The notes under the pieces are model-generated. The model was given only the letters and a program-made list of their open reading frames with translations, was not told the origin of the DNA and searched no databases. The position numbers and the translations under genes are program-made. From an uncultured virus (IMG/VR IMGVR_UViG_3300032006_000004) (lineage: Duplodnaviria > Heunggongvirae > Uroviricota > Caudoviricetes): 64,000 bases of DNA. Within the stretch, counting starts at the first letter, position 1. Every line of letters starts with the position of its first letter. Positions 17,044-64,000 of this stretch are shown piece by piece. The stretch lies in IMG/VR virus record IMGVR_UViG_3300032006_000004; one strand, written 5' to 3'.

Positions 17044-17061
17044 ATTTTCCTTTCTCCCTGA

Positions 17062-17962: not shown

Positions 17963-18390
17963 GCTTTCGCATTTTCTAAATACACGGCTGCGTTAAGAAG
18001 ACGGTCTGTTTCTTCTCTCATCCAACCGATACCACGGTTACAGGTATTGCAAAGTAGCCCTCTTACTTTTCCAGTGAGATGGCAATGATCCACTACTAGC
18101 AGTTCAGAAGTGGGATGCTCGCTGTCAGCAGACTGACAGATAGCACACTTACCTTCCTGTTCCTTAAACATGCGGTCATAGTCTTGGGGAGTTATCCCGT
18201 ATCGGTGCAAAGTTTTCTTTCTGCGCCATTCAGGTCCCCGTTTGCGTTCGTAGTCACGCATGGCTTGATTGTGGCAGGTACGACAGCGTGAACGTACGCC
18301 GAGTTTGCCTGTTGATTGTTTATGGAAATTGGTGAGTGGCTGAGGGTTCTCCTCAGGACACTCTTCGTTGTAACAAGTTTTAGTATTCAT
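17959..18390 (-). CDS. Endonuclease VII-type HNH nuclease (homing-endonuclease-like)
   Basis: YGIT..DY..M...Q.GKCAIC...LVVDHCH.TGKVRGLLC..CN.G.G. Confidence 0.9.
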   Translation of the reverse strand: MNTKTCYNEECPEENPQPLTNFHKQSTGKLGVRSRCRTCHNQAMRDYERKRGPEWRRKKTLHRYGITPQDYDRMFKEQEGKCAICQSADSEHPTSELLVVDHCHLTGKVRGLLCNTCNRGIGWMREETDRLLNAAVYLENAKA

Positions 18391-18725
18391 ATCCCGATGG
18401 TTTCAGAAGCTTGTATTTTCCGCAGACGTTCCTCCTTTGCTCGAACGATCATGTCGTGGCTACGTTGTTTCGACACACCGATACGCCTACCCGATGCAGC
18501 AGCGTTAGCTGTATGCAGACTTACATCCAGAAGTGCATGTCTACGCTCGTAGCTCAAGATGTCTCGCCACATGCTCGTCTTCTTGGATGCGATGTCATAG
18601 AACTGCAAGTCATCTTCAGATGAACTGCAAGCTAACGCCACGTCCATTAAGTCTTGAAAATCTTCTGGTTCTAGCTCCAACATTTGGTTGAAAGCCGACG
18701 CCATTGAGAATGTTATATCGGTCAT
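18387..18725 (-). CDS. Putative HTH DNA-binding protein
   Basis: AAASGRRIGVSKQRSHDM; homologue 57317..57652 (SQAEAGRFIALGRTRSHEL). Confidence 0.55.
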   Translation of the reverse strand: MTDITFSMASAFNQMLELEPEDFQDLMDVALACSSSEDDLQFYDIASKKTSMWRDILSYERRHALLDVSLHTANAAASGRRIGVSKQRSHDMIVRAKEERLRKIQASETIGI

Positions 18726-18884
18726 TATCCTTGTTCTTCCTGATCTTTAAGTAGTTGTTCGTAACAATTATTTGCTGCTTCTTCATCTTGGAAGAAGTCT
18801 CTTGGCACTCCGTCTTGAAGAACGAACCATCCTCTGCAGTGACGGCCTCCTCCTGTCGGGAATGTGTATGGCTTTATTTCGTAT

Positions 18885-20603: not shown

Positions 20604-20613
20604 CTCCCTCCCT

Positions 20614-21369
20614 TCACTTAGAGGCTGAGAAACGCACGTTGTTGACGCCCGTTATGCACAGCCCACATTTGAGACAGGCTCCTCGGCCTGTCCGATCTTC
20701 ATTCCATACAACCAACGGGATCTTGCCTGTCAGTTCGGGACAGCGTGGCCCTCGCCTCTGGTCAGGAAACGTCCGAGCTAAAGCATCGGTCGCTTCCCAA
20801 CTCTCAGCGGTGAAAGCCAGCTTCACCCATGGATATGTCTTACTTGTATGGCGTGCCTGCTTCACGTTGTCTTTATCTACCGATAGGTAGACGACAAGGT
20901 TGTCAGCTTGCAGTCGCCTGATCGCATTGAATGTTCTGGTGTATAACCAGAACTTGACTTGCGGAAACCGTTGACAGACTCGCCTGATGGCAGTCGCAAA
21001 CTCGGGTGTCGGGATGTCTCCATCCCAGAACCACCTGAACACCCAGTCTTCTGGCTCACTCCATTTCTGCATGTACTTGAACGACTGTTCAACTACGGCA
21101 TACAAGAGTTCTTCCAGCTTGTCTGGATCATGCAGGTGAGGCTTGACTAGCTGCCAGTTTCTTTCCAACGCATCTCTAGTCTGCTTAAAGACAACTTCCA
21201 GCTTGCGTGCATAACACATAGATTCGCAAGTTGGTGTCGATCCCCAGCATGACTTGATTGCTGGGAGTCCGAATGCGTTCGGGACTCTGACATAAGCCTC
21301 GTTGCCCTCCTCATATTTGCGCTGCATCATAGGTGCAGTCTTACGGTCAGTGCTTAGGTGTAGGTTCAA
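20614..21369 (-). CDS. Gp88-like (radical-SAM-related Fe-S) protein
   Basis: FGLPA..SC.G.T..C...CYA, FRW...GD, WLYTR, C..CGLC. Confidence 0.75.
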   Translation of the reverse strand: MNLHLSTDRKTAPMMQRKYEEGNEAYVRVPNAFGLPAIKSCWGSTPTCESMCYARKLEVVFKQTRDALERNWQLVKPHLHDPDKLEELLYAVVEQSFKYMQKWSEPEDWVFRWFWDGDIPTPEFATAIRRVCQRFPQVKFWLYTRTFNAIRRLQADNLVVYLSVDKDNVKQARHTSKTYPWVKLAFTAESWEATDALARTFPDQRRGPRCPELTGKIPLVVWNEDRTGRGACLKCGLCITGVNNVRFSASK

Positions 21370-22279
21370 CCTTCTCCCCCTATTTCTGGTTCTGGTGTGT
21401 AGCTATCTTCTTCTTTTGACCATTCGGTTAAGGCACGAACCACGGCTTGCGCCATGAATCCTCGCCCTCCGAAACCACCCCACGTATTTTCTAACGTAGG
21501 ATCAGCGGCCATAGCCATTTCTCCTACCCATAGGTGGAAGTCAAGAAGATAGACCGCTGTTAGCTGCTCTACTGGTTCACCGTTCTGGTACAAGGCATGT
21601 TTGCCTGTGCCAGCACGATGCACTCGTTCAAGCGAACGCACATTCCACTCTGGTACCACTTTCCCATCGAAGTAGTCTGGTGATACGAGTGTGTGTCCGT
21701 CACCGTCTAGTGCAGCGTAGTCCTGCCCCTCCTGTTTGGTTAGGGCAAAGCGTATGTCTGCTTTGATCTTGTCCATTTATCTCACCCCCTCTCGTTATCA
21801 GTTTGAAAGTCAAGTCTGATGACTGCGTTCTTGAACTGATTAGTAAGCTCCTGTCGCATGTCAGATTTCGACACGTTCGCTACCTTCTGGACTGCCTCGA
21901 TAAAGGCATCGCCAGTGGAGCAAACATTCTCGACTCGAACGAAGTCACGCAACAACTGTCTTACATTGTTGTTGATCTCTTCGCCAAGGTCATCGCCTCT
22001 AACAATGTCCATTTGGTCAACGACTTGATGTACTTCGTCGTGGACATCTAGGTCTTCGTGAACCATGTCTACGATCTCTCGTGAATGGTCACTTATGATG
22101 TCCAACCAGTCAACTCCCTCAAAATATGATTGAACTTCGTCACGTATTGCATCTCCAAGAAGTTCGCGGAGTGCTTGCGAGTTCAGTTCCAGAGTTAGAT
22201 ATGGACTGTTGATTATTTGTACTTCGAGTTCCTCACTCATGGTGATTCTCTCCCTTAATTTGTGATGTTGGCTAGACAT
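21366..22279 (-). other. Two early hypothetical ORFs (21366-21776, 21782-22279)
   Basis: Homologues at 60585-60935 and 62220-62801. Confidence 0.65.
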
Positions 22280-22343
22280 CTGAATAAGCCATGAGGAACA
22301 CCAAACTTACTGTTCCAGTAAGTCTGGTGTTCCCGAGTCTCAT

Positions 22344-23327
22344 TCAGACCTGAACGAGTTGGCGTGCAGCCCTATCAGTGAGTGGCATTGACCCGAATAG
22401 CAGACGGTCAAGGTGCCGTCCTTGTTTCGTGCCACCACGCACCTGTTGGACGTGCTGCTCATATCCCTGTACAGCCATGAGCGCACCCCACTTGGTTTCC
22501 CTGATGCCGCCATCAAGGTCATCGTGGTAGTAACGGGCAGTTATCTTGTCGAAGGTTTTATCCCAAGACGTTTGGCTCCTGCCCTCATCCTCTGGACGTT
22601 GACCCAACAGACTCCTAGTTAGGTCACCGAAATTGCCAGCGGTGTAGCTCTCGTTGATAAGCCGTTCTACTTGCTCATCGAGATGTTGTTGCAGCTTGGC
22701 TGCCTCAACGAACGAGTCGATAGCCCATTGCAGATAGCTAGTGGCATGACGAGTGTGCTTGATAGACCATGAAGCCTGCACACCTAGCACGTAGGCAGCG
22801 AATGTGTTTGAACACACCACCACTCCGATGGTTGGACGGCCTGAAGCGGCAATCGTCCCATCATGTGCATCAGTCAGTGTGAAGTATTTATGGATATCGC
22901 TGTAGCCCTCAATCTTTAGAGGCGAACCCATCTCCAGTGTCACGTATGCCTTTCGACCGTGATTAAGGGTGCCCTTGGATGCAACTCCAGCGGAGAAACC
23001 GTGATCTAAAAGTTTCTCTACAGCGGCATCCATCTCATCATATTGAGTGATGCCTCTGCCCTCGGTTACTCCCACATTTAGTGGGAACCCATTGTCGTCA
23101 CGACGAATGACGAAGCCATTATTTACGTCCCATTCGGAAACAGGTGTGTAGATAATCTCCCCGTCAATCATGTCTTGGACATACAGTTCTTGGCGGTTGG
23201 CTTGGAATTGCCATGGATTCTCTGCGTACTCCTCTGCGGAGAGCAGGTGACCATAGGTGATCCCTTTGCCATGCCAAGCTGTATTGGCGTAGACCGCTAG
23301 GTCATCGCCGTAGATTTCAGCAGACAT
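22344..23327 (-). CDS. DUF932-family phage/plasmid protein
   Basis: AWHG.G, G.L..G..., AHDG, VVC.NT, KHT, T.WGA..AV..Y. Confidence 0.85.
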   Translation of the reverse strand: MSAEIYGDDLAVYANTAWHGKGITYGHLLSAEEYAENPWQFQANRQELYVQDMIDGEIIYTPVSEWDVNNGFVIRRDDNGFPLNVGVTEGRGITQYDEMDAAVEKLLDHGFSAGVASKGTLNHGRKAYVTLEMGSPLKIEGYSDIHKYFTLTDAHDGTIAASGRPTIGVVVCSNTFAAYVLGVQASWSIKHTRHATSYLQWAIDSFVEAAKLQQHLDEQVERLINESYTAGNFGDLTRSLLGQRPEDEGRSQTSWDKTFDKITARYYHDDLDGGIRETKWGALMAVQGYEQHVQQVRGGTKQGRHLDRLLFGSMPLTDRAARQLVQV

Positions 23328-23432
23328 GCTGACTCCTTACTTGGTTGTTTATGTTGTTAATGGGAGACTTACTGGAACAGTAAGTCGCTCATCGTGGGAT
23401 GAAGGGGCGTCGAACCCCTAACCACTAGAACC

Positions 23433-23461
23433 ATTCTATCATCCCATACAGGTAATGTCAA
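23433..23461 (-). promoter_or_regulatory. Sigma-70/SigA-type early promoter TTGACA-N17-TAGAAT
   Basis: Near-consensus hexamers upstream of the DUF932 gene, with a palindrome site at 23367. Confidence 0.8.
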
Positions 23462-23500
23462 GTACCCGCGTACCCATTTTGTCAAGGTACACAGGACTCG

Positions 23501-23836
23501 TCACTTGTACCTGCCACAAGTCCACAAGTCCCACCCCCCACGAGTGTTCTCATGTATGTAGTGAGCCATCCATGTTGACTGCACTACTTCGTATCGTTTC
23601 GGCCAGTGTTTTTCAAACACATGGCCCCAATAGTGTTCGTTTATCTGAAACAATCCATGATCTACCCCGTTGTAGGCACGAGGATTGTGCAGTGACTCGC
23701 ACCACGCAACTCCCAGCGCCCTCACGCAGTCGTCTGCAAAATATTCGCAAACGACTTCAGGGATTTCGGCATTCGGTGGCTCATAGTTCACCGATGCGAA
23801 GTCAAGGATTGACCAGATAGCCAACCAAAGATTCAT
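23501..23836 (-). CDS. Secreted lytic transglycosylase-like (SLT/Rpf-like) protein
   Basis: Hydrophobic N-terminus; CES...P.A...D.GLFQIN...W; W..WTC. Confidence 0.75.
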   Translation of the reverse strand: MNLWLAIWSILDFASVNYEPPNAEIPEVVCEYFADDCVRALGVAWCESLHNPRAYNGVDHGLFQINEHYWGHVFEKHWPKRYEVVQSTWMAHYIHENTRGGWDLWTCGRYK

Positions 23837-25377
23837 CCATCCCCCAGTAGCATTAGACCCAAACGAATATCCGACAGCCCTTGATACAGAGCCTCATCTG
23901 CCCGATTCAGGTCATTGTTCTCCCTCAGGTAGTCAAGAATCTCAAGTATGTGAAATAGCTGATGTTTGGTTATCTGCACCTTTCGAGTCTTGTCCTCGCA
24001 GTCGCCATCGGCGCAGTCACCGAAGCCACCACAGATGTTGCATATTTCTTCGTCGAATTTCAACATTATCGTAAAGGGTGATCCTCTCTGTCTGCCCCAT
24101 ACAACATCCACACTGCCTGAGGCAGCTTCAAGTCATATGACAAGGCATGACACCAGCCGTCATACCCATAGTTGTTGAAGTCCTTGACAGCAACAACAAA
24201 GGGTGCATCAGGAAACGCACACATCTCAGGTGGGCGTTTCACCAGTATCCTGAACAACCCATCAGTAGGGTCGTCGGGATACATCTTGTCCATCTCAATG
24301 ATTGGGTAACCATTGGATGTGATTGGTTTATCGTGTTCCAACACAGTCTCTCTCCCATTCTCCAGTGTTTGGATTCATTACATGCGTGATCCAACCAGTC
24401 TTGGTTCGATTGTCACGCTTGGTTTCTCGTTGCCATTGGTTGCGGCGATGTTTCCGCAACTTCTTTCTATTCTGAGCAGTCTTAGACATTGCTCTCCCCT
24501 TTCTTAATGAGGTCCTGTTCAGCTTCCTTAGACCAGTCGTACGGTTTCCCGAACTCTGTGCCCATGTACATGATGTCCAGCATCTCCTGAGTGCGCCGCA
24601 CCCAGTACTCATGCTGCTCCATCTCTTTCTTGCGAGCGTTGTATGCCCATATCCCAACGAATACGCAAACACACAGAAGTATGAATGCTGCACCCATCGG
24701 TGTTATCCAAGGCCACGTAGTCATGGCTCTCCTCTCCTTGTTACCAGCCAGACATATGGCCGAACGCATCGTCCGACCATCGAATGGCATCGTTGAATGT
24801 TTCTATCTTCTGGTACTTCAATTCATCTACCAGATCTTTATTCCTGACTGCTTCAATGCATGATCCATGACGAATCTTGATTGCAACAGTCAATGCGAGA
24901 TAGAACGTCGTACGTTCGTTCTCGCTAGCGTTAGGGTTGTCCTTCAAGTCTTTCAACTTGAAGTGCCCATTCTCAATCCAGATCACTGTAAATATCTCCC
25001 TTTCTGTACTTACTGGAACAGTAAGATCATGTGCTGTATTGAAGCGCCTCTTGTCTGGCAGCTTCAAGTTCAGCGGTTGTAGGAGGATGACCTAAACAGT
25101 CAAGCTCCATGAACCCTTTGTCACTCGTCCACAACGCCACATGATATGTGCGGTGTAGATCAACGAGTCCTTGTCGGGTAATGAACCTGTATGGTTCGTG
25201 ATTACAAGATAGCAACGGATTAACCGATACGTCCGTGTCTGGGTGAACGACAAAGAACTGATCGTTCGTTTCAAACAGAGTCCGCACAATCTCCCAATCT
25301 CCAGTAGGCCAGCTAAAGGAGGCTAAGAGAAGTACGTCGGAACCTCGGGTAGTCCGTGCGTTACTGCGTGGCAGCAT
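23833..25377 (-). other. Cluster of small early hypothetical ORFs
   Basis: Packed - strand ORFs 23833-24111, 24066-24344, 24482-24790, 24741-25067, 25027-25377. Confidence 0.55.
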
Positions 25378-25448
25378 CGCTCTCCCCTCTGGAACTTACT
25401 GGAACAGTAAGTTCGCTCCGCAGGTGGACTCTCCACCCACCAACAACT

Positions 25449-25476
25449 ATTTTACCATACCCACAAATAAAGTCAA
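25449..25476 (-). promoter_or_regulatory. Early promoter TTGACT-N16-TAAAAT with TG extension
   Basis: Upstream of the 25377 ORF cluster, palindrome at 25394 downstream. Confidence 0.65.
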
Positions 25477-25655
25477 GTCATTCTTGACGCCAGTAGTCAC
25501 TGCCCACGGCACCTCCCCATTCACTATCAGAACTACAGAGCACACGGCACACGGCACTATTCATTCACTCATTCACTATCAGACATAAACACAAACAAAA
25601 AAAAGAGAATGAATCTTTCGATCCATTCTAAGTGACTTACTGGAACAGTAAGTAC

Positions 25656-25689
25656 AAAAAAAAGGGGAGGGATCTTTCGATCCCTCCCC
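25656..25689 (-). terminator. Rho-independent terminator
   Basis: GGGGAGGGATC-GAAA-GATCCCTCCCC-T8; degenerate second copy at ~25597-25629. Confidence 0.9.
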
Positions 25690-25708
25690 CACTTACTGGA
25701 ACAGTAAG

Positions 25709-26461
25709 TTAGGCCGTAGCCTTAGCAGCTTCCTGCTCTGCTACTGTCTCTTCGCAGTTGGCAACCATGGTTGCAGTATTCGCAAGGAAGTTGCGAATAG
25801 TGTCAGCATGCTTCACGCCGCCAGCAGCATCAGTTGCTAGACGCTTGTTCAGAGCTTCTAGCTGTTGTGCAGCAGCTTTCACCAGAGCATCAGTAGATAC
25901 CTTAGGTGCGCGATTCCTACCGCCTCCATTCTTGGTATTACCTTTACCCTTACCCTTACCGCTACCGTTCTTATTACCCGAACGCTTAGACTCTTCAGGC
26001 TTGCTAGCGTTAAAGGCTTTACTGACTTTCTCTGCCAGATCACTAGTCAACCATTCAGCGTTACCCTTAGATTCTTTCCTAGCATCTCTCAGGGTTTGAA
26101 TAGCAGCAGAACGGCCACCATGGGTATCAACTGGATCAAGCGCAGGCTTAATCTTTGCCAGACAATCCATCGAACCAACTAGCTTTTTCTCTGCCATGGT
26201 TGCAGTGATGACTTTAGTCTCCACTAGCCAGTGCAGAGCAATGCCAGCAGCATTCCAACTAGACCAACGCCTATCGGTAAAGTCTGGGCCGATTGACTTC
26301 TGAAGTTGTGCTTTAACCTCTGACACCTCAGAGCGTCCTAGGTCTTTAGTTACTGCACCTAGGCTGTATGCCCAGTTCTGCATTGCTAGGCCAATAGTTA
26401 CCTTTAACTCGCCGTAAGAAGTTGTCAGCTTCTTAACGGTATTACTTATCTTCGTAGCCAT
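25709..26461 (-). CDS. First early gene: basic 250-aa protein of unknown function
   Basis: GGGAGG RBS; Lys/Gly-rich linker; palindrome sites on both sides; own terminator. Confidence 0.75.
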   Translation of the reverse strand: MATKISNTVKKLTTSYGELKVTIGLAMQNWAYSLGAVTKDLGRSEVSEVKAQLQKSIGPDFTDRRWSSWNAAGIALHWLVETKVITATMAEKKLVGSMDCLAKIKPALDPVDTHGGRSAAIQTLRDARKESKGNAEWLTSDLAEKVSKAFNASKPEESKRSGNKNGSGKGKGKGNTKNGGGRNRAPKVSTDALVKAAAQQLEALNKRLATDAAGGVKHADTIRNFLANTATMVANCEETVAEQEAAKATA

Positions 26462-26876
26462 AGTGGCTACCTCCCTATTGTTAGCGACTTACTGGAGCAG
26501 TAAGTCGGAGGGTCTGTCCCTCTGCTATCTAAGTTATGGATATGGGGACGGTACGCAAACGGTAGACCATATGCCTAGTTCATAGGGTTTGATAGCCCTA
26601 GTTCCTGGCCTATCCCTAACCCTTAGCCCCATTTACTAGGCCAATATGGGTAGAACCTAGGCCGTTCCTGCGCTACTGGCACCCTAACGAACCACGGAGA
26701 AGGGGAGGGGGGTACCCTAGGGGGGGTCCTGATAGTGGTCCCGTGTATGTATAGATATCAATATCCAGTGCGTTCAGTTTTTGAAACTTGGACGGGGGAG
26801 AGAGTGTTCTTTTTTGTTCTTTCCATGTATGCCTGTTACTGGAGAGGCGTTAGGGGCATACAAGGTAGGGAAAGGT

Positions 26877-26921
26877 GGGGGGGGAGGGGGAAACGCTTGG
26901 GGCGTTTCCCCCTCCCCCCCC
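26877..26921. repeat. 20-bp perfect inverted repeat of G/C tracts upstream of TerS
   Basis: G8-A-G5-AAACGC / GCGTTT-C5-T-C8 around a 5-nt loop. Confidence 0.85.
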
Positions 26922-26980
26922 CTACACTATACCCACAGTGTCCCACTTTCCCTCGCGGGACAACTAAACTTTAAATATAG
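26922..26980. promoter_or_regulatory. Divergent pair of GGGAC-N13/14-TRTAG late-promoter-like motifs upstream of TerS
   Basis: + strand 26957-26980, - strand 26944-26922; same motif at 2951, 12363, 30386, 32872, 42354, 51293. Confidence 0.65.
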
Positions 26981-26991
26981 GAGGTTTTCTT

Positions 26992-27444
26992 ATGCCGCAA
27001 AATGGTGGTGGCCGAGGATGGGCAACAGACCCCGACACAGGCGAAAAAGTAATGCCCCAGCAATGGGCAGAATTTTTAGAGTGGCTGTTATCGGATGAGC
27101 GTATTCCGTCTTCTGCTAGGGAGTGGTGTGCCGAGCGTGACTTGAATGAGCGTACGGTTAGGAGGTGGAAAGCTGACCCTCGTTTCATTCGTGAGTGGGA
27201 CCGCAGGGCTGCTGAACTGAACGTCCACCCCGAGCGTACCCAGTCAGTAGTTGACGCTCTGTACAAGCAGGCCGCTCAGGGTGATGTTAAGGCTGCATCT
27301 TTGTACTTACAGTACATAGAAAGATTCACTCCGAAGCGGAGAGTGGTTGTGGATGATGAGCGTGAGGCGTCTGGTATGTCTGATGCGGAGTTAGCTGCTG
27401 AGTTAGATGATTTGATTGCTGGTTTAAGGAGCGAGGATGCCTAA
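26992..27444 (+). CDS. Terminase small subunit-like HTH protein
   Basis: HTH (ERTVRRWKADPRF), AL...A..GDVKAA.LYL; first late gene. Confidence 0.75.
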   Translation: MPQNGGGRGWATDPDTGEKVMPQQWAEFLEWLLSDERIPSSAREWCAERDLNERTVRRWKADPRFIREWDRRAAELNVHPERTQSVVDALYKQAAQGDVKAASLYLQYIERFTPKRRVVVDDEREASGMSDAELAAELDDLIAGLRSEDA

Positions 27445-27680
27445 AAAGTACGGATATTCGACTAAGGGGAGAGGTAAGGCTGCAAAGTCTTCTGCGAAGA
27501 AGTTGCGTTCTTCAAAGTCGAAGAAACGATGACGGAGTTGCAAGACTTACATGATGATGGGATGTGGATGCAAATGGAAGAGATGGGGGAGCGTCCCGAT
27601 TTGTTGACTGATCCGTTTTTGGATGATGAACCTATTGAGTGTTCGTTGGATGAGGTGGATATTTGTGAAAGTTGTCAGTG

Positions 27681-27929
27681 ATGGTGAGTAAGTCAACTGC
27701 GTATTATCGTGCGAATCCTGAGGCTAAAGCTAAGAAAGATGCGTATAACACGAAATACCATGCGACTCCTGAGCGTAAGAAATATCGGGCAGATTTAGAC
27801 AAGAATCGGAGAGCAAGAGCTAATGCTGGTCAGAGTTTGGCTGGTAAGGATGTTTCGCACACTAAGGGGGGCGGCACGACCTTAGAAGATAGTTCTAAGA
27901 ATCGTGCTCGTAATAGGGGAAAGAAATAA
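27681..27929 (+). CDS. Small basic HNH-like protein
   Basis: GKDVSH...GG...E..S.NRARN. Confidence 0.55.
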   Translation: MVSKSTAYYRANPEAKAKKDAYNTKYHATPERKKYRADLDKNRRARANAGQSLAGKDVSHTKGGGTTLEDSSKNRARNRGKK

Positions 27930-27944
27930 CTCTGTGGGGGGTTT

Positions 27945-28229
27945 ATGTCGATTGAAGATGTGGCAGAAAAAGCTGATGTCTGGTCTGAGGCGATTAAAAA
28001 GATCATTAAAGCCGTTACTGCGGCGGTTGTCGCGCTGGTTGCTGGGATCTCTGGATTAATGATGTTGTGGCCTAGTAGCGAGAAGCCTGATCCTGCGCCT
28101 GTGGTGCGGACTGATTTGGTTCCTGGCTATGGGCCTCAGTGTTCGCAGTTGTATAACACGATTGACCATACGTGGACTGAGAGTCAGTGGTCTGTGTGGG
28201 AATCTTTACGGAAAGATTTAGGTTGTTAG
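27945..28229 (+). CDS. Hypothetical membrane protein
   Basis: One transmembrane segment. Confidence 0.55.
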   Translation: MSIEDVAEKADVWSEAIKKIIKAVTAAVVALVAGISGLMMLWPSSEKPDPAPVVRTDLVPGYGPQCSQLYNTIDHTWTESQWSVWESLRKDLGC

Positions 28230-28840
28230 CGAAATGGGTATCCGTTGAACCACATGACTGCGCTGTGGCGTTCTCCGCTGGTGACGGGTGTTATTCTGTG
28301 TTCCATGAAGCTCGGGAATACTGCTATTGATCCTCGTTCTGCGTCGTTGAAACAATGAAGTTGGTCGTAGCAGCGGATTTGAAGTTCTCCGCCTTCGTAG
28401 TCCGATGAATGAGAAAGATTCACTGTTGCTGAAAGTTTACGCACGGTTCCCTGGAGTTCTGGGAATGGGGTCAGGTTCAAAGGGATTGGATTTGGAACTT
28501 GGTGAGAGGGTAGAAGGCGACGGGCAGCATGATTGTCGGAGTGACCGTCGATATGCCAGTCGTAGTGGCCGTCTACGCCGTAGCGTGTGTATTGAAGAGC
28601 TTCTGGTTTATGTAAGTCGTACGACCAGCCTGATTCTTTGTTTGCTTGCCGAATCCAGGCTGCGATTAGATCGTTTAGTTTTTCGTTGTAGATCCAAGAA
28701 ATTTGGGATTTCCGATGTTCTTCGGAGTCTCCGAAATGGATTCCTTCGATTTGTTGCTCCATCGCAGCGGCGTGTTGAATCTCGTCGCACTGCTGTGGGG
28801 TTAGCGCCTCTGGAATCCACCAATAGTGGTTGGTGAGCAT
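28226..28840 (-). CDS. 2OG-Fe(II) oxygenase (PKHD-type hydroxylase-like)
   Basis: YDWHID, RKLS...LS...YEGGEL, FPS...H..TPVT.G.R.S...W. Confidence 0.9.
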   Translation of the reverse strand: MLTNHYWWIPEALTPQQCDEIQHAAAMEQQIEGIHFGDSEEHRKSQISWIYNEKLNDLIAAWIRQANKESGWSYDLHKPEALQYTRYGVDGHYDWHIDGHSDNHAARRLLPSHQVPNPIPLNLTPFPELQGTVRKLSATVNLSHSSDYEGGELQIRCYDQLHCFNDAERGSIAVFPSFMEHRITPVTSGERHSAVMWFNGYPFR

Positions 28841-30397: not shown

Positions 30398-30435
30398 CCT
30401 TTCTATAGACATGTCAATTTTGGAGGAAACCTTTA

Positions 30436-30726: not shown

Positions 30727-30729
30727 AAC

Positions 30730-57220: not shown

Positions 57221-57244
57221 GCACCCACTTATTTTTGAGCGCGG

Positions 57245-57278: not shown

Positions 57279-57316
57279 GATCGCTCCCGTAGAAGATCTG
57301 TGTAGCTACACAGATC

Positions 57317-57652
57317 TCATGGGGTAAATGGGTTATGTTTGTGAATCCGCTCCGTCATCGCTTGATCGACTAGCTCATGCGAACGAGTCCGACCAAGTGC
57401 GATAAACCGACCTGCTTCTGCTTGACTGTAACCTTGATTAGTTAGGTCTAGCATTTTCTGTCGGCGGAGATACCTGAGTACCTTTAGCTGATTTTCCCAA
57501 ACCCAACAAAGCCTGTCGATGTAACGGAGATGTGCTGGACTATCAACTTCCCACGAACTGTTCTCTTCCACACAGCTTTGGAGATCTTCAATGTCCATCT
57601 CCGAAACCACAAACATGGCTTCAGTGGTGACCCATTCAGCTTTATCTTTCAT
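57317..57652 (-). CDS. Putative HTH DNA-binding protein
   Basis: GYSQAEAGRFIALGRTRSHELV. Confidence 0.6.
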   Translation of the reverse strand: MKDKAEWVTTEAMFVVSEMDIEDLQSCVEENSSWEVDSPAHLRYIDRLCWVWENQLKVLRYLRRQKMLDLTNQGYSQAEAGRFIALGRTRSHELVDQAMTERIHKHNPFTP

Positions 57653-59100
57653 AACATACCTCTGGCTCTCAGTATCTGCTCTCTGGTGAAAGCATCATGG
57701 ATAACGAAAGGATTATCCCGTTTACCAGCAGGCTTCTTTGCGGTAACGGGTTCTTGGGAACGAGCTTTGTTCGCTCGTTCTCTGCGTTCCCTTTCGTAAG
57801 TCGATTTAGCTGACTTACAAAGAAGGCATCTGCATCCACGTCCGTAGTTGGTTAAGGATGGGTTGCCGTCGCAGTCATGTTTCATCTGCAAACTCCTCTA
57901 CTAGTTTTCGCATCTGCATAATGTTTCTCAGATCGAAGTGGCCGTTCTCTCGTATCCGACTGATAGGCCACGATTCGGTAACGTGACCTATCTTGATGAA
58001 GTCCAAGAAAGCTTCATCTTCCCCACAGGGGGAACAGATGTAAGTCAGGTTATCCGAACGAGATAGCGCATTCATGGCCTGTACCTCAATCAGATCCTCA
58101 ATTTGGCATCGGGGACATTTCATATTTTTTTCTCCCAGTATTCGACATTTGTGATGTCCTTGAGGTCGTACCGCCCATACTGCGTGTCCTCAGAAAGGTA
58201 ATGCCAACAGTCACTACACAGGTAGTAGCCCGCTCTGGACCCTATGATGATTTCCCGATCCTGTGCGGGCATCATGGGCCAGACATCTTGCACTAATCCG
58301 CCAGCTAAATACTTGTCGTAATCAGCCATCGTGACCAGAACAGAGTCCTCCTTCTCATCACACTTGCCCAATGAGCCGAAAGGAGCCGAGCACTTCGCAG
58401 TGATCTTAATCTCTCTGTCACCCATCCATTTCGATGGGCAGTTGAGCAGACCATGACAGTCGCACTTGACTGGAGGGAACATGGCTTCGCCTTGAATCGT
58501 TTCCACTACCCTTCACCCCCGTACTCGTAATCTGGGACGTAGGAATCGTTCCGCTCGTAATCATAGATTTCTTCAGAAACTCCGAAGATGTCAACTCCAC
58601 CTTCCCGTTGAGCACGCTCCACGGCATTAGCGTAGGCTTTGTCTAGAGATGGGAAGTCATAAGCGCCCCAACACCAAGATGTGTCGCCTTCATACCAAAA
58701 AGCTGTACCCCAATCAGGCTTGCCCCACGGAGTATTCTCCTTAGGGCGGTGAAAGATGATTACATACGGAGGTCGCAAACCGCCGTCGTGTTTAACGGGA
58801 ATTACCCCAACAATTTTGTAGCCGTTGATTCTAGGCAGATCAACCATTGTCGCCTCCTTCGGGGAATGGGATCACAACTGCATCCATTTCCTCAGTTGGG
58901 CAGTCGCCGCTTACGCTCTGAATGTCTCGCATAGAACCGAGATCTACTAACTGGAGGCGAACCGCACCAGCGAGGTTCATCTCCAGTTCTTCGGCCTTCT
59001 CTAGGTAATGCCCAGCCATATGCCTAAGCATGTGAATGGTGTCATGTACCTCGTCGAACAGTTCCAATAGGGTCTGTTCTTGATGATTGTTATCTTCCAT
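57649..59100 (-). other. Small early ORFs (57649-57891 GCRC Zn finger, 57875-58123, 58120-58506, 58506-58847, 58840-59100)
   Basis: Homologues in the phage A early region. Confidence 0.7.
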
Positions 59101-59262
59101 AACTGTTCTCCTAACAGTAAATAAGTGGGTGAAGCAGAGAACCTTAACGAGGCCAATGAACGCCCCGCACTTGACACCACGTTCCGTTGGTGCAGGTTCT
59201 CTTTAACGTGAAAGGTTTCCGTTTGCTTCACCTTGATACATCTGTGTAGCTACACAGATGTA

Positions 59263-60315
59263 TCAGACCAATTCCCCTTCGTCGAATTTGTACGCTCCGC
59301 GCCAGTCGAAGCGATCCCCTGATAACAGACCCACTGCTTTATCTGTCAGCGGAAGTTTCCCGAATAAGAGGTTACGATGATGACGTTCTCCTCGGTCTAC
59401 TCCTCTGACGCGTAGGTCCTTTTGTTCGTAGGCTTGCACTGCCATAAGCGCACCCCAATAAGTGTTCCTGACCGCTTTCTGGTCAGGGTCAGTGTGGTAG
59501 CGCCACGATAGCTTGTCGCGCTGCTCTTCCCATCCCTGCCACTTGCGAGTCACGATAGGCGCACCGTCTTTGGCGAAGCCCATCTTGACAGGCTCCTTCC
59601 CAATGATGGTATGCGTAAGCTGGGCGAACATTTCATCGGTAAAGTCAGTGTCCGCTAGCCGTTCTATGCGGCGAGCGTATTGTTCGCCGCGCTTGAAGCG
59701 CTCTATGACATTGGAAACTGCTTGTCGCATAAGGTCCGCTGGATTGCCCATGTGACGAAAGCTGTACCATGACGGCACGTTGAGCACGTTGGTCCGCATG
59801 GTGTTAGCACAAACCACAATACCCAAAGAGTTAGTCATAGCTAACGTGACCTCAGCATACCCATTGGTGAGATTCACAATATTATGAACCTCGGAGTACC
59901 CAGGGATAGTTATCTCGTTAGGCAAAGAAATCGAAATGAAAGCTACGCGCCCATCTTCATAGGTGCCGATAGATTCAATCTCCTTTACCATGCCTGCCCT
60001 ATCCAAAGCTGGGAGTATTTCTTCAGCTAAGAATGAATGTTGCACTAGCTGGTACTTGTCTGAATGGTGACCATGTGCCACAGGCCAATGCTTGAGGATC
60101 ACAGTCCTAGCATTCTTGAACTCATGTAACTCTGGTTCATACATTGGGTTTTCTGCTTCGTGCATAAAGAATGGCGCATCCAAATATGCGTCAGCCCAAC
60201 TTAAAGCACCCGTGGCCTCACCGATAGTGATGGGCCCTACCTTGCCGAAACCATGCCAAGCAGGTTGTTTGAACATTAAATGTTGAGCATCAAGCTCAGT
60301 TATCCTAGATCCCAT
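59263..60315 (-). CDS. DUF932-family protein
   Basis: PAWHG.G, VVCANT, T.WGALMAVQ.YEQ. Confidence 0.85.
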   Translation of the reverse strand: MGSRITELDAQHLMFKQPAWHGFGKVGPITIGEATGALSWADAYLDAPFFMHEAENPMYEPELHEFKNARTVILKHWPVAHGHHSDKYQLVQHSFLAEEILPALDRAGMVKEIESIGTYEDGRVAFISISLPNEITIPGYSEVHNIVNLTNGYAEVTLAMTNSLGIVVCANTMRTNVLNVPSWYSFRHMGNPADLMRQAVSNVIERFKRGEQYARRIERLADTDFTDEMFAQLTHTIIGKEPVKMGFAKDGAPIVTRKWQGWEEQRDKLSWRYHTDPDQKAVRNTYWGALMAVQAYEQKDLRVRGVDRGERHHRNLLFGKLPLTDKAVGLLSGDRFDWRGAYKFDEGELV

Positions 60316-60935
60316 TATCTTCTCCTTGTTGTTGGGAACCAAATTGTGAATCGGGGCCAATAAGTGGTCCTACTGTCTCCCGAAATTGAGTGGCTTGTTC
60401 CGAAATAGTTGTAAGCAGAACTAGCCACGGCTGTATTTCTTCCAACATGACTGGTGGCATCGTGAGATCGTTGATCTCTTCGCACACTGCCATGACAGAT
60501 TGTTCGAGTCTCTGTGCCTGCCGCCAGTGAGCACCTAACTGGTACAACTGGTCGCTAGACATAAAGACATGACCATCAAAGGGCTTATTGGAATACATCA
60601 GGATCTGCACCGCTCCAGTTAACTAAAGCATCAACTATGTTGCGGGCTTCAGTTCCACGACCATAAGCTCCTCTGTATTTCACACCAGACTTTTCAGCCA
60701 CCCAGTCAAGGAAGTCAAGGTTGTAAACACCTTTGCTCTCCTTCATCGGTTGACCCTCAGCATCGAAGATAACCGTTTTGGCGGTACCTGAATTGAAGTC
60801 TGATTCGTAAACAAACACTAGGTGGTCAACATCGAACCCTTCGTAAAACTTGGGATCAAGTATCTGATGACCATCTGGATAGATGATGCCATTCTCAATG
60901 GCATCTTTAACTCTGTTTTTCCATGATTCCTCCAT
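60305..60935 (-). other. Two early hypothetical ORFs (60305-60610, 60585-60935)
   Basis: Packed - strand ORFs. Confidence 0.6.
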
Positions 60936-60971
60936 TGGAATCCTCCTTAAAAGATCTGTGTAGCTACACAG

Positions 60972-61712
60972 TTATTTGTAACGATTACTAGCTGCGAAAC
61001 GGACGTTGTTCACCCCCTTAATGCACAGGCCGCACTCAACACATGCGCCCATACCGTCATTGACCAAAGGAATCTTTTTGGTTAGCTCAGGACATCTAGG
61101 ACCTTTCCGACGATGAGGGAACTTGCTAGCAAGCTCCTCAGTCTCGGACCATGTGTCACCACAGAACGCAAGATTGACCCAGCGATTCTGCTGCTCGCAA
61201 GCACGAGCTTCCCAAACATTTCCCCTGTCTACAGAAAGATAGACAGCCAAGTTCGGTGTCTCCGCCAAAAACGGGACTACAGCGAAGGTTCTCGTGTAGA
61301 CCCAGAAACTGATGTCCCTGTAATCTTCAGCGACCTTCGCCATAGCCAAAGCAAATTCTTCGGTAGGAATGTCGCCATCCCAAAAATGCCGAAAAACCCA
61401 CTGATCCTTCGGCACCTCATGGCGCTGAAGGAAGAAGTGAGTCTCCGAAACTAACTTGCCTAGCTCCGAGTAAAGATAATCAAAATCACAAAGATGATCC
61501 TTGATGGCTTCCCAATTAGCTTCGAGAAGCTTACGGACGTTAGGGCGATAGCCCTCAATGCGTTCCGCATAGCAATGCTGGTCACAGAACTCCGTTCGGC
61601 CCACACAATGAGAGGCTGGTAGCCCGAAGGTGTTCTTCACCTCGGGATACCATTTCCCCCCTTTGAGTGTCGCTAACGGTGTGACCTTCCTATCAGTAGA
61701 AAGTCTGAGCAT
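60972..61712 (-). CDS. Gp88-like Fe-S protein
   Basis: Homologue of 20614..21369. Confidence 0.75.
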   Translation of the reverse strand: MLRLSTDRKVTPLATLKGGKWYPEVKNTFGLPASHCVGRTEFCDQHCYAERIEGYRPNVRKLLEANWEAIKDHLCDFDYLYSELGKLVSETHFFLQRHEVPKDQWVFRHFWDGDIPTEEFALAMAKVAEDYRDISFWVYTRTFAVVPFLAETPNLAVYLSVDRGNVWEARACEQQNRWVNLAFCGDTWSETEELASKFPHRRKGPRCPELTKKIPLVNDGMGACVECGLCIKGVNNVRFAASNRYK

Positions 61713-62801
61713 CTATTTCCACCAAGGCCAGTTGCCTTCTTCTTTCATGGCTTTGATCTGATTGTCGGCCCAGTCGTTCTCATCGAAAACGTACTCATCT
61801 TCAAGTTCTTCATCCTCCTCGAACTCATCGAAACAAGATGGGCAGTGTGGACCGCTGACTCCATTCGTTGTGGCATCTTGGAAGTTCACGGTGCCACGAT
61901 GATCACAGAGCACGCAGACATATGTCTTGAGCTTCATCAGCCTTCGCCCCTAACTAGTTCCCTGATGCTTTCCCAAGCTTCATCGAAACTGAGATTCTCA
62001 AAGATCCTCTCATTCATAGCCAACACTGCCTCGTCATAGGTGTCGTATTGCTTCGACATAGTTGTAGACATAGCAGCACCCGCATCAGACACACCACCCA
62101 TGTCATAGGTGATCTGGAACCAGTAGGTTGAAGAACCAGACATATCCCGAACACCAGCACTAACAATGACAGGCATAGCAGGCGCAGTGTCCAGAGTCCT
62201 TGCTATCCAGTTGTTCGACTCATCCTCCATTGGAGATCGCCTCCTCTATGGCTTCATCCAACTGCCTGTCGAACTTCATGGACTCTGACTGGCCCGATGA
62301 AGGCCAGATGTTATCGAGACTGTCCACAGCGGACTGCGCTGCCAGCTTGACATTGAACCGAGTGATCCGCTCAACAGTCTCATTCAAGTCACCCATTACA
62401 GCAGCCTCGCTCTGAGATTCGCTGATCATCTCTGGAACAACTTCCATGATGACCTTCTCCACTGCTTCAGCAAATGCTTTGCCGACACCACAGCGAGACA
62501 GACGAGGAACTCGGATAAAGTCGTACAACATCGACTCTACGGCGCTGGCTAGGTCCTCTTCTCGTATGAGGCTCTGACCATCGTCTAGGTCGTTGACGCT
62601 GATGTACTGCATGTTGCTGCTGATGATCTCATCCCAACGGTTGAAGTCCCAGATAATTTGGTAAACATCATCATGGACATCAAGGTTGTTGGAGATGTAA
62701 TCTTCGACCGACTGATCTACCTTGTGTTCAATCGCATCATACAAACCATCATCGTCAATGGAGACTGTTGTGTCTCCTAGGTTTATTTCAAATTCAGCCA
62801 T
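61713..62801 (-). other. Three acidic early hypothetical ORFs (61713-61937, 61937-62230, 62220-62801)
   Basis: Overlapping start/stop codons, RBS. Confidence 0.65.
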
Positions 62802-63189
62802 ATCTTCTCCTCACATCTGTGTAGCTACACAGATGTATCTGGGTATGATCACGAACGGAATTGTCCGCAATTCAATAACCAATTTATCACACTTTAACTA
62901 TCTACTTCATTAAACGGGGACAGTAATATTCGACTGCAAATTGTTAAGGCGCCCCACAGCACGTCCCACAGCACGCCCCACGGCACCCACCCACCCACTA
63001 TCACATCTCCCACCAACAAAAAAAGTTAAGGTGCTCAAAAAAGAATTCCAAAAAGAAAAAACGCGAATCTGTGAAAAGAACTGTGTAGCTACACATAACT
63101 CTTAAGGTCCCCCCACTATCTTTTCACTATCGAGGCGAACCCTGGGGGCCCCCTCGATACAACTGTGTAGCTACACACATCTTCCACAC

Positions 63190-63224
63190 AAAAAAAAAGA
63201 ACCCCCGCCTTTCGGCGGGGGTTC
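63190..63224 (-). terminator. Rho-independent terminator
   Basis: GAACCCCCGCC-GAAA-GGCGGGGGTTC-T9. Confidence 0.9.
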
Positions 63225-63247
63225 GCTAGCTGCAGAGAGGGTAACAG

Positions 63248-63731
63248 CTAGAATGGTGAGTAGAAGGCAGTCACCTTCTCCAAGTTCTTTCCATATCGTA
63301 CTTCAACGCTATCCAAAGAGCCACCCTCTGACCTCTGAACATCTACGATATTCACATAACCACTTTGTAATCCCATGCAACGGAAGTCTCTACCCTTCTT
63401 CCATGCATCCTTAACCTGTGGGAGTGTCGTGTAGACATCCCCATACGCTGGCTTAACTACGATATGCACGTTCATCAGCCTCCTTCATGGCACGCCATGC
63501 ACAATTCAAACCATCATCAGCATCAGCGCAAGCGCCAACACCATGACAGACCTCACAGAACTCAGCCATGCGCCTAGAATGACGCTCAGCATCCAAAGCC
63601 AACTGCATCAGCACTGCATCGTCAGCCTTACGCTCCGCCTTGCGACGCTCCCGCTCCGCAAGCCATGCCCATACGAGAACAGTAAGCATTGCGCTCACCC
63701 AACCCCATATGTAACCGTCTAAGAACTCCAT
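63248..63731 (-). other. Two small early ORFs (63248-63475, 63453-63731)
   Basis: Bracketed by a promoter module and a terminator. Confidence 0.65.
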
Positions 63732-64000
63732 TGAAGCCCTCTCTTTCCAGATCTGTGTAGCTACACAGATCTCTCAACTGGCAATCAGTTCGATCACCTA
63801 AAAACAAGGCTATCACACAAAAACAAAGCTCTTAACTAGAACAGATTAGTAATATTCGGACGAAAGTCCCACAGCACCCACCTAAACCCACAACAAAACC
63901 CAAACATCGGGACCACCCACTATCGTTTCACTATCCCGCCGAGGTCGCCATAAGCGACCGAGGCCACCTCGTGAGAACTGTGTAGCTACACACATCTCAC

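Follow-up and report, generated by a model that had tools for sequence, protein, structure and literature searches.

Why does the early arm of a phage carry the same short palindrome seven times, and what reads it? The question arises in a 64,000-nt stretch of DNA from an uncultured marine caudovirus (IMG/VR IMGVR_UViG_3300032006_000004), which we call the window. It contains the early arm of phage A as well as a second genome.

The palindrome array of phage A

The 19-bp palindrome ACTTACTG-GAA-CAGTAAGT is present in seven copies, five exact and two with one mismatch. All fall within 22305-26505, and no further copy was found elsewhere in the 64-kb window. Shuffled sequences give an expectation of 0.02 copies, and none of 100 shuffles reached 13 strand-matches. 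The site has an 8-3-8 layout rather than that of an asymmetric 13-mer. The flanks diverge between copies, so that the 19-mer alone is shared, and promoters and terminators lie at varying distances from it. The copy at 25008 deviates at its last base, while the copy at 26487 has a GAG centre; the central triplet reads GAA on the plus strand at six of the seven sites and TTC at 22305. A first-pass annotation had reported seven copies restricted to the early arm and mostly placed between genes. This is borne out, and in fact all seven are intergenic. They follow three promoter-like sites, adjoin two terminators or mark junctions between a stop codon and a ribosome-binding site.

The features described next are all on the minus strand. 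The first early gene (25709..26461, 250 aa) is preceded by a putative promoter, P1 (26531..26558, TTGCGT-16-TAACTT), which is weak by consensus and was read from the sequence, not being among the promoter-scan results. TTGCGT with a -10-like hexamer occupies the same position in the relatives L009, L010, L013, L046 and L049. Copy 1 (26487..26505, one mismatch, sense-strand centre CTC) lies in the leader of this gene, 25 nt upstream of the ATG. Copy 2 (25691..25709) overlaps its stop codon by 1 nt and abuts the intrinsic terminator T1 (25655..25690, 12-pair stem and T8). Copy 3 (25635..25653) is located between T1 and a second intrinsic terminator, T2 (25598..25629, 10-pair stem and T8), which it directly precedes. 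Copy 4 (25394..25412) lies 37 nt downstream of the -10 hexamer of promoter-like site P2 (25449..25476, TTGACT-16-TAAAAT with TG, 10/12); a ribosome-binding site comes directly after the copy, which the ATG at 25377 follows at 16 nt. Copy 5 (25008..25026, mismatched at the outermost base) separates the stop codon at 25027-25029 from the start region of the following gene, with its ribosome-binding site and GTG (24986). Copy 6 (23367..23385) is found 48 nt downstream of the -10 hexamer of P3 (23433..23461, TTGACA-17-TAGAAT with TG, 11/12), with the ATG of a DUF932 gene (22344..23327) following 40 nt after it. Copy 7 (22305-22323), whose centre is inverted, forms the apex of a 39-nt hairpin downstream of the DUF932 gene (22295..22333; 18-nt arms, 94% complementary; RNA fold -30.1 kcal/mol). 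The bracketing of the first gene by two copies, the copies just downstream of promoters, those beside terminators and the 39-bp hairpin had all been described at first pass, and our analysis agrees on each.

The array had also been assigned to the vicinity of a putative genome end, but in relatives there is no end at this place. The contig of a relative spans window positions 26435-31129 unbroken at 96.4% identity; the array therefore marks the start of the early arm, adjoining the divergent junction with the structural genes. The crossing of the supposed end by contigs of relatives also takes away the reference point for the first-pass suggestion that the copies might mark first-injected DNA.

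Palindromes across the phage family

In the second genome of the window the palindrome is a different one, CTGTGTAGCTACACAG, present in eight copies with no unpaired centre (57298..63993, minus strand; exact at 57298, 59242, 60956, 62817 and 63753, one mismatch at 63081, 63163 and 63978). The first gene of this genome falls outside the window. Among related early arms, 47 of 83 have at least three copies of a palindrome, representing about 13 types at orthologous sites. The palindromes of the relatives measure 14-21 bp, with a centre of 0 to 4 nt depending on the lineage. A relative recovered from a sequencing run has AGTTACTG-TTC-CAGTAACT at both of the two sites covered. At orthologous sites the flanks are kept and the core is swapped on both arms, as in TTATAAC..GTTATAA versus TTCTAAC..GTTAGAA. 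Arrays of lineage-specific palindromes characterise this family of phages at large.

The arms are invariant and the central 1-4 nt vary in the ACCTAG, TCTAGAA, TTCTAAC, TTATAAC and TGTGGA-NN lineages as well as in L022 and L032, which is the pattern of two half-sites if a dimer reads them. Two observations count against an operator function. Several lineages have constant, oriented centres (TTC at 5/7 copies in L009 and 6/7 in L010; A at 10/11 and 13/13 copies in others), which a symmetric dimer alone does not explain. Additionally, the symmetry at some sites continues far into flanks peculiar to that site; runs of 4 or more pairs accompany 31 of 89 copies, compared to 2% at random, and point to hairpin formation there.

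Covariation of the motif with the first early gene

As the first-pass annotation had proposed, we looked for co-variation of motif and protein across the family, and the first early gene does covary. It is the sole gene that changes with the motif between near-identical relatives. Between phages with 88-100% identity in their other early genes, the first gene shows 76% identity in a same-motif pair and no match in different-motif relatives. Among 18 non-redundant phages, all eight same-motif pairs have first genes of 57-86% identity, whereas 130 of 145 different-motif pairs give no BLAST match; the other 15 match at 22-48%, and most of these involve motifs with a common visible half-site core. 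The gene is hypervariable, since identity ranges from 57 to 86% even inside one motif type. The neighbouring 116-aa gene is missing from the ACCTAG group.

Two proteins had been suggested as cognate factors at first pass. The helix-turn-helix protein (18387..18725) is ruled out as the specificity determinant, because a relative with an entirely different palindrome encodes it at 97% identity over 112 aa. The 250-aa protein is the only candidate left of the two, and as the motif sequence tracks it, the first early protein is the likely reader and regulator.

Part of this covariation is linkage, because the first gene and four to five of the seven copies belong to one replaced module. The early arm is a mosaic, and in a comparison of L009 with L011 a non-homologous block (227-1798 versus 313-1611) terminates at a motif copy in both genomes; the other copies are replaced within conserved flanks. 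The mosaicism and the shared breakpoint would suit mobile regulatory cassettes, in which border stem-loops are kept identical by recombination or gene conversion and promote early-gene shuffling without any dedicated reader. The promoter-early stem-loops (PeSLs) of T4-type phages are repeated stem-loops by terminators and early promoters at variable cassette borders (PMC4122927), described as composite terminator/promoter motifs that mediate such exchange (PMC4122927, PMC2839356), and in phage A, too, the copies sit at cassette borders beside terminators and promoters. However, a PeSL is a longer composite of terminator and promoter, for which the account cited proposes no reader protein, while here a palindrome is conserved without its flanks, with a centre that can differ between copies, and its sequence changes along with a protein. 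A conserved part of 15-19 bp is too short for efficient homologous exchange, varying centres inside invariant arms speak against homogenisation driven by conversion, and the change of the first gene with the motif is left unexplained. We therefore regard cassettes of this kind as quite improbable.

Predicted structure of the first early protein

The 250-aa protein consists of an all-helical N-terminal domain (residues 1-155), a disordered linker rich in G, K and N (158-193) and a C-terminal helical hairpin. The model of the N-domain is confident (pLDDT 89.6, pTM 0.83) and contains no strand of three or more residues. Its best structural matches are DNA-binding domains on palindromic DNA, although the resemblance is weak: VIA-align gave Z scores of 5.6 (rmsd 4.8, 107 aligned residues) and 5.7 (rmsd 4.2, 102 aligned) to SopB-18mer and lower scores to KorB (4.6/4.5), VirB (4.3/4.4) and ParB-parS (4.0/3.8), all of them below 8 and under the level of trust for this tool. 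Foldseek found nothing at E <= 0.001, its best SopB match having a probability of 0.38, and a search of PDB sequences gave no match. None of 18 first-gene proteins matched Pfam at the curated cut-off. A ParB/Srx CTPase domain is absent: the models of the 250-aa protein are all-helical, and none of the 18 had a Pfam match at E <= 5. The 250-aa protein is outside every known family.

The protein is predicted to form a symmetric homodimer (score 0.76 in 3/3 runs, compared to 0.00 for the best of three controls), with at least 97% contact agreement between runs and a partner pLDDT of 81. Among proteins of solved structure, 20 of 30 one-chain pairs attained the mark used for this call, as did 1 of 23 single chains. 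Between motif groups, first-gene proteins align with hhalign probabilities of 0.3-1.6%, at which homology is not demonstrable, so grouping them as one family goes by their position and size. Of the 18, seven are acidic, with an N-domain pI of 5.0-5.9.

DNA sites or RNA hairpins

The palindromes could instead act as hairpins in early mRNA, as 5' or 3' stabilisers, as processing sites for an RNase III-like or phage endoribonuclease, or as nut-like sites that load the first-gene product onto RNA polymerase for readthrough of terminators. Every phage A copy falls in transcribed leader or intercistronic RNA, many of them 1-12 nt before a ribosome-binding site or adjoining a terminator, and the predicted folding energy of the 19-mer is -7 kcal/mol (z -6.5), that of the 39-mer -30.1 kcal/mol. 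Stem extensions are site-specific and differ by lineage at orthologous sites (CCAAT/ATTGG, CCAAA/TTTGG, CGAGA/TCTCG), and relatives also have a lineage-specific long hairpin at the position of 22295..22333. The oriented central triplet, in phage A as in other lineages, would suit a hairpin as well. The order of first gene, site and terminator resembles that of lambda N and nutL.

Nevertheless, the pattern of conservation argues against RNA. Known RNA binders that read loops conserve the loop rather than the stem, which is the opposite of the invariant stems and varying loops of many lineages, and the motif of the second genome lacks an unpaired centre altogether. Unlike T7 RNase III sites and lambda nut, the copies within one genome are identical in sequence, and mismatched copies in phage A, the second genome and the relatives break pairs without compensatory changes. 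On the sense strand, pairing in the flanks is not enriched in G-U (87 vs 84). In GTGGA lineages the copy near the first gene precedes the first promoter-like site, suggesting that it acts on DNA, not RNA. RNase III cleaves a double-stranded stem of about 20 bp. Such a stem exists in one of the seven phage A copies (22295-22333), the other six having 8 bp plus 0-2 extra pairs, and RNA-library contigs display no RNA ends. Processing of the T7 type, which had been offered at first pass as an alternative, therefore fits at most one site in seven, and we consider a function as mRNA hairpins unlikely in general.

A different role for hairpins would be as promoters, extruded from DNA and read by a virion-carried RNA polymerase of the N4 type, for which a giant 2219-aa virion protein would be the candidate. 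Portal matches among cultured phages are limited to records ranging over about 49-250 kb, the majority being 74-80 kb long, which we take to be N4-like. The structural arm ends with this protein and one of 1882 aa, both of unknown function, and the phage A site, with its 8-bp stem and 3-nt loop, lies just before ribosome-binding sites. Neither protein gave an RNA polymerase signal or a PHROGs or Pfam match, and the 2219-aa protein had no match among PDB sequences. Two copies follow strong sigma-70-like promoters and the phage encodes a sigma-like gene; two copies are directly followed by terminators, and the centre length changes from 0 to 4 nt with lineage. Hairpin promoters of this type are thus highly improbable.

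Comparison with known systems

We propose that the array probably comprises operator or stoperator-like sites for a fast-evolving early regulator. The first-pass annotation had put forward binding sites for a dimeric phage protein; the comparative evidence, the covariation and the predicted homodimer favour this reading, with binding itself deduced from sequence comparison and structural models. Cluster A mycobacteriophages such as L5 and Bxb1 are described as having many dispersed intergenic stoperators in the transcribed arm, most of them outside promoters and predominantly in one orientation (PMC6550527). Related phages of this cluster have different motifs and different repressors, which change in step (PMC6550527). 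Stoperators are asymmetric 13-bp sites, up to about 30 per genome, and are recognised by a temperate phage's immunity repressor. The phage A array is similar in being a short, multi-copy intergenic site (n = 7) whose motif covaries with a candidate reader. It differs in that its sites are palindromes of about 15-19 bp limited to the first 4-7 kb, and that the candidate reader is an orphan, the 250-aa first early protein. No integrase, CI-like or ParA family was detected among the 27 and 29 proteins scanned by HMM, a search that may miss families; the first-pass annotation had likewise seen no classical CI repressor or integrase.

Plasmid RK2 has 12 O_B sites. There, a KorB dimer reads the short multi-copy palindrome near to or far from promoters and silences transcription (PMC11790492). 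Like KorB, SopB, ParB and VirB, whose DNA-binding domains are the top matches to the N-domain model at Z scores of only 4-5.7, the 250-aa protein is predicted to join a candidate DNA-binding domain through a flexible linker to a C-terminal element for dimerisation. It differs in lacking the ParB/Srx CTPase domain and a Pfam match, and neither a ParA nor a KorA partner was seen. The lytic phage D29 encodes a repressor, Gp36, reported to damp both early and late genes that lie downstream of where it binds; it belongs to the MerR family and binds GC-rich direct repeats (PMC12266134). Phage A similarly offers a candidate repressor from a phage that does not look temperate, but with a dispersed array of palindromes in place of direct repeats. 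As a multi-copy set of intergenic early inverted repeats, the array may also resemble the conserved inverted repeats (CIRs) of phiC31. The CIRs of this temperate phage, about 17 bp long, occupy many intergenic early-region positions close to promoters and terminators, and a single repressor of a known family binds them.

A model for early-gene control

The first gene would be read from its own promoter, with the two terminators insulating the remaining early genes. As its product builds up as a homodimer, it would occupy the copy in its own leader, resulting in autoregulation, and also the copies that follow the next two promoters at 35-50 nt, those at junctions of stop codon and ribosome-binding site and those beside the terminators. 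The bound protein could damp or block host RNA polymerase over the first 4 kb of the early arm, either as a stoperator-like roadblock or as a KorB-like global repressor. We infer both that the 250-aa protein binds the palindrome and that binding leads to repression. Each lineage would possess its own pair of protein and palindrome, with every site in a genome fitted to the protein encoded there. If this is true, the matched pair would provide type-specific control of early genes.

A bolder proposal, to which we give rather little weight, concerns the apparently virulent marine podophage family as a whole. Its members would carry, as their first gene, a hypervariable SopB/KorB-like dimer without CTPase, together with matched palindromes that are replaced at every site when the protein changes, and the pair would serve kin discrimination between co-infecting relatives, a heteroimmunity without lysogeny. 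Should this be the case, a phage would silence or license only genomes bearing its own palindrome, which would drive the rapid concerted turnover of protein and sites.

Palindrome copies in the early arm of phage A

The 19-bp palindrome of phage A, an 8-3-8 repeat, was found at only seven places in the window when up to three mismatches were allowed: 22305, 23367, 25008, 25394, 25635, 25691 and 26487. Five of the seven copies are exact and two carry one mismatch, against 0.02 copies expected from shuffles. The positions named in the first-pass annotation hold, as does its placing of copies just past promoters, beside terminators and on both sides of the first early gene. GAA stands on the + strand in six of the seven copies and TTC in one (22305). 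Because the genes of the arm all lie on the - strand, the sense strand is ACTTACTG-TTC-CAGTAAGT in five copies, with a CTC centre in one and a GAA centre in one.

Two copies follow strong sigma-70-like sites on the - strand, at distances of 48 nt from P3 (23461..23433, 11/12, with TG) and 37 nt from P2 (25476..25449, 10/12, with TG). We treat both sites as consensus matches only, since the promoter scan was overall unenriched (9 found vs 14.5 expected). Two intrinsic terminators on the - strand (25690..25663 and 25629..25606) each have a palindrome copy directly before them. The first early gene (25709..26461, - strand) has a copy on either side: the one at 26487 precedes its ATG by 25 nt and the one at 25691 overlaps its stop codon. 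A further copy, at 25008, occupies the gap from a stop codon to the ribosome-binding site that comes next, and the one at 22305 forms the tip of a 39-nt hairpin, which exists as previously claimed.

The tRNA scan yielded no tRNA genes, and an Rfam search of 21500-27200 returned only spurious miRNA-type hairpin matches, all under gathering scores. Between P3 and its palindrome lies a tRNA-like minihelix (23395-23446, - strand) with a 6-bp acceptor-like stem and a T-arm (GGGGTTCGAnnCCCC), the 5' strand of which overlaps the -10 hexamer of P3. It is kept in seven relatives with compensatory changes (GGGATGA/TCATCCC, GGGATGG/CCATCCC, GGGGTG/CACCTC) and drew no call from Rfam or ARAGORN. Possible roles are a processing signal of RNase P/Z type or the remnant of an attachment site. 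Additionally, GATAGTGAA occurs six times in the window (0.68 expected), including 25520-25528, 25572-25580, 63123-63131 and 63927-63935 (- strand), in leaders downstream of early terminators of both genomes. As it is also present in relatives with other palindromes, it may be a second, lineage-independent signal.

Two related genomes in the window

The first 26.8 kb of the window correspond to IMG/VR record G001 (27,065 bp). A contig of a 97%-related phage (L010) aligns unbroken to 31129-26435 at 96.4%, and 1-697 matches 39291-39987 at 84%; therefore, the window exceeds one lap of a genome of about 39 kb. We read its sequence as two related but distinct genomes lying head to tail, phage A (early arm 13000-26500) and phage B (early arm 52000-64000); the assembly may be a chimera or a concatemer-like joining of strain variants. 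The putative genome end next to the early arm of phage A turned out not to be an end: the L010 contig crosses it, and it is a divergent junction with early genes running leftward and structural genes rightward. DNA contigs from other sequencing runs break near 26653-26730 and 26884-26922. The junction also contains a G-rich/C-rich inverted repeat (26877-26921), perfect over 20 bp and with 5 nt between its arms, which may act as a terminator in both directions or be situated close to a packaging/terminal-repeat region.

The phage belongs to an uncultured marine type resembling podoviruses. MW202803.1 is the GenBank record closest to it (portal identity 42%), the phage's sequence was found in many marine plankton metagenome runs, and a DNA search of public phage records with 21500-27000 gave no match, near or distant. 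Early-arm products comprise DUF932, GP88, endonuclease VII, a PD-(D/E)XK nuclease, a DnaB-like helicase, an AEP primase, RusA and a sigma-like protein. Profile searches of 27 and 29 proteins detected no integrase or CI-type repressor, in agreement with the first-pass annotation. The last early-arm gene (12989-13636, - strand) weakly matches the phage RNA polymerase sigma family PHROG 1740 (E 2.4e-4), and its product could drive late transcription. The large terminase is encoded by two adjacent ORFs (28830-29729 and 29726-30397; 299 and 223 aa), both matching terminase large-subunit families, and represents either a split gene or a frameshift. In the virion arm, two giant proteins (2219 aa, 4926-11585; 1882 aa, 44873-50521) had no family match, and the former had no PDB sequence match.

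Relatives carry palindromes of their own

Phage B carries a different palindrome, CTGTGTAGCTACACAG, in eight copies confined to 57298-63993 and at positions equivalent to those of phage A. Relatives were gathered by a GP88-like protein, yielding 28 viral and 54 metagenome loci, or 83 sources with the phage B arm. An early-arm palindrome with exact arms was present in at least three copies in 47 of the 83 sources, in two copies in nine and absent from 27; most sources with fewer than three copies are short contigs, their median length being 6.6 kb vs 13 kb.

These early arms contain about 13 palindrome types: ACTTACTG-TTC-CAGTAAGT, ACCTAG-N4-CTAGGT, GTTACTAA-T-TTAGTAAC, TCTAGAA-N3-TTCTAGA, TTATAAC-N3-GTTATAA, TTCTAAC-N3-GTTAGAA, AAATATAA-N-TTATATTT, AAATATA-N3-TATATTT, AATAACG-N-CGTTATT, TGTGGAA-A-TTCCACA (up to 13 copies), TGTGGAATTCCACA, TGTGGA-NN-TCCACA and CTGTGTAGCTACACAG. 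At orthologous sites the flanks are conserved and the core is the lineage's own, as in cgactaaccaat[TTATAACGGCGTTATAA]attgggg vs cgactaaccaat[TTCTAACGATGTTAGAA]attgggg, and the same symmetric change recurs at the other sites of those genomes. In a difference table, sequencing-run contigs of one relative had AGTTACTG-TTC-CAGTAACT at both covered sites, which is another symmetric double change. Of 118 copies from 20 sources, 96 lie outside ORFs, according to a crude ORF call in which starts are over-extended. The whole MW202803.1 record contains no early-arm palindrome of the phage A kind. The same 42-kb genome carries GTTTC-N4-5-GAAAC 39 times across its whole length, genes included (rough chance estimate <1). 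We found no description in the published literature of this phage family, its palindromes or such arrays in marine podophages.

The first early gene covaries with the palindrome

We compared phage A (L009) gene by gene with six relatives whose GP88 is 88-98% identical. One of them, L011, carries the ACCTAG palindrome, yet most of its compared early proteins are 88-100% identical to those of phage A, including DUF932 (98%) and GP88 (96%). The HTH protein (18387..18725), which had been put forward as a cognate factor, is 97% identical over 112 aa in L011 despite the other palindrome, and is therefore ruled out as the specificity determinant. The other candidate, the 250-aa product of the first early gene, covaries with the motif: its gene is the only one that is kept in same-motif L010 (76%) and has no match in L011, L012, L013, L014 and L015. 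The L012 contig (record G002) breaks exactly around the first gene and was uninformative. The replaced block spans 227-1798 in phage A and 313-1611 in L011, with a motif copy at the block end in both, and the two distal copies flanking the DUF932 gene (22344..23327) are swapped within conserved flanks.

This pattern extends to 18 non-redundant phages in which the gene is flanked by motif copies (L052, L083 and L070 were dropped as identical duplicates). First-gene identity was 57-86% in all eight same-motif pairs. Among the 145 pairs with different motifs, 130 gave no BLAST match and 15 matched at 22-48%, most of the latter sharing a visible half-site core (TTACT-N5-AGTAA, GTGGA..TCCAC or ATAAC/CTAAC). 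L011 and L050, which have ACCTAG arms in common, have first genes that are 67% identical. The covariation is to be read with the first gene being hypervariable regardless of motif and physically linked to four or five of the copies. The neighbouring second gene (116 aa) also varies between two groups, but the ACCTAG group lacks it, and it was rejected as a universal reader of the palindromes.

The product of the first early gene

The 250-aa protein matched no Pfam or PHROG family and no protein in public phage records, and none of the 18 first-gene proteins reached the Pfam cut-off, even with listing at E <= 5. Among 1.84 billion representatives, phmmer gave four matches, two of which were long repeat proteins and were disregarded, and a viral scan with the first-gene alignment returned just the two loci already known. 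Profile comparison with the first-gene proteins of other motif groups showed no significant similarity. Seven of the 18 first-gene proteins are acidic. A tail of the form ...EA(A/E)xATA (25709-25735) is conserved in first-gene proteins of the ACTTACTG and GTTACTAA groups despite 22-48% identity, and may be a docking or degradation tag.

AlphaFold2 predicted a helical N-domain (1-155) joined by a disordered linker rich in G/K/N (158-193) to a C-terminal helical hairpin (mean pLDDT 70.5); folded alone, the N-domain reached a pLDDT of 89.6 and a pTM of 0.83. The model contains no ParB-type CTPase domain. At E <= 0.001, neither Foldseek with the protein models nor BFVD gave a match, and full-length fold searches either aligned the C-terminal hairpin alone with generic coiled coils or returned nothing. 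The best BFVD probabilities, which serve as leads only, were 0.91 for an uncharacterised Vibrio phage JSF9 protein and 0.85 for a DUF3102 protein of an uncultured marine virus. ESM Atlas matches at 0.90-0.91, including a 'translation repressor' cluster, shared few features and were dismissed as chance level.

With the N-domain, VIA-align (48,161 chains) ranked SopB(155-272) bound to 18mer DNA first (Z 5.6, rmsd 4.8, 107/115 residues), followed by a second SopB-18mer (5.4), KorB (4.6 and 4.5), VirB-DNA (4.3), ParB-parS (4.0) and P1 ParB-DNA (3.8), all of these Z values being below the trust level that VIA-align states. Proteins of these four kinds fill seven of the 12 top rows, and a second look again placed SopB first (Z 5.7, rmsd 4.2, 102/110) and VirB third (4.4), likewise below that level. 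As they form one functional class, dimers that read short palindromes, we regard the model matches as a lead rather than as membership.

Two-copy prediction of the 250-aa protein gave 0.76 in all three runs, with the best of the three controls scoring 0.00; the runs agreed in at least 97% of contacts (partner pLDDT 81). The predicted symmetric interface consists of the first long helix and the C-terminal helices. Of proteins with solved structures, 20 of 30 same-chain pairs and 1 of 23 single chains reached the tool's mark; since our own alignment went into the prediction here, these counts apply only roughly. The prediction supports a homodimer, short of showing one.

Evidence for reading as DNA or as RNA

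A number of observations point to double-stranded DNA as the form in which a dimer would recognise the palindrome. Many lineages have arms that never change around a centre whose 1-4 nt vary between copies, and deviant copies lose a pair without compensation. Further, G-T pairs are equally frequent in the sense (87) and antisense-equivalent (84) orientation over 10 flanking positions of 89 copies from 14 sources, and in the GTGGA lineages (GTGGA..TCCAC palindromes) the copy next to the first gene stands upstream of the promoter-like site.

Other features argue against a purely symmetric DNA site. In some lineages the centre is oriented and constant (TTC in 5/7 copies of phage A and 6/7 of L010, T in 6/6, and A in 10/11 and 13/13); Cluster A stoperators are also oriented along transcription (PMC6550527). 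Flanks that extend the palindrome are Watson-Crick paired at 44.5% vs 24.8% by chance, runs of at least four flanking pairs occur in 31 of 89 copies vs 2% by chance. The extensions also covary when orthologous sites are compared, and the site that follows the DUF932 gene forms a long hairpin in every lineage examined. These features make it probable that some copies additionally form hairpins in RNA. The sequencing-run data consist of contigs without RNA ends or physical genome termini, and RNA-library contigs may be DNA carry-over.

Proposed role of the array

The palindromes are best supported as protein-binding sites, and comparative sequence evidence makes the 250-aa first early protein the specific candidate for reading them. 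Transcription of the first gene would start from a promoter-like site that is weak but conserved (26558..26531), with two terminators insulating the gene. The product, as a dimer, would bind the palindrome in its own leader, those 35-50 nt downstream of P2 and P3, and the copies at intercistronic junctions and beside terminators, and would so limit the progress of host polymerase across the first 4 kb. We infer repression or a roadblock from the site positions and from analogues (stoperators and KorB); the bound product may instead activate or anti-terminate. Every lineage has all of its sites in step with its own protein, which implies selection against mismatched hybrids and would provide type-specific control among co-infecting relatives.

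Jointly diversifying regulator/operator pairs are well known in temperate phages, as immunity groups and stoperators. In its logic, the proposed system matches Cluster A stoperators (PMC6550527) and KorB acting on O_B sites (PMC11790492). Unlike in both systems, the sites here are palindromic, the array is restricted to the early arm, the candidate reader is an orphan without CTPase domain, and lysogeny genes were undetected. PeSL cassettes of T4-type phages resemble the array in their position at cassette borders, but are longer composite units without a proposed reader (PMC4122927, PMC2839356). For a repressor in a lytic phage, D29 Gp36 is a precedent (PMC12266134).

The co-diversification logic of temperate regulators and operators appears here in an uncultured marine podophage family without detected lysogeny genes, with a candidate reader of no known family and with sites that, amid near-identical genes, all switch together. 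If true, the family would offer about 13 natural orthogonal protein/palindrome pairs on a single scaffold, useful for studies of DNA-binding specificity evolution and as orthogonal repressors, and would suggest that competition among lytic phages infecting the same host cell helps to drive the diversification of regulation.
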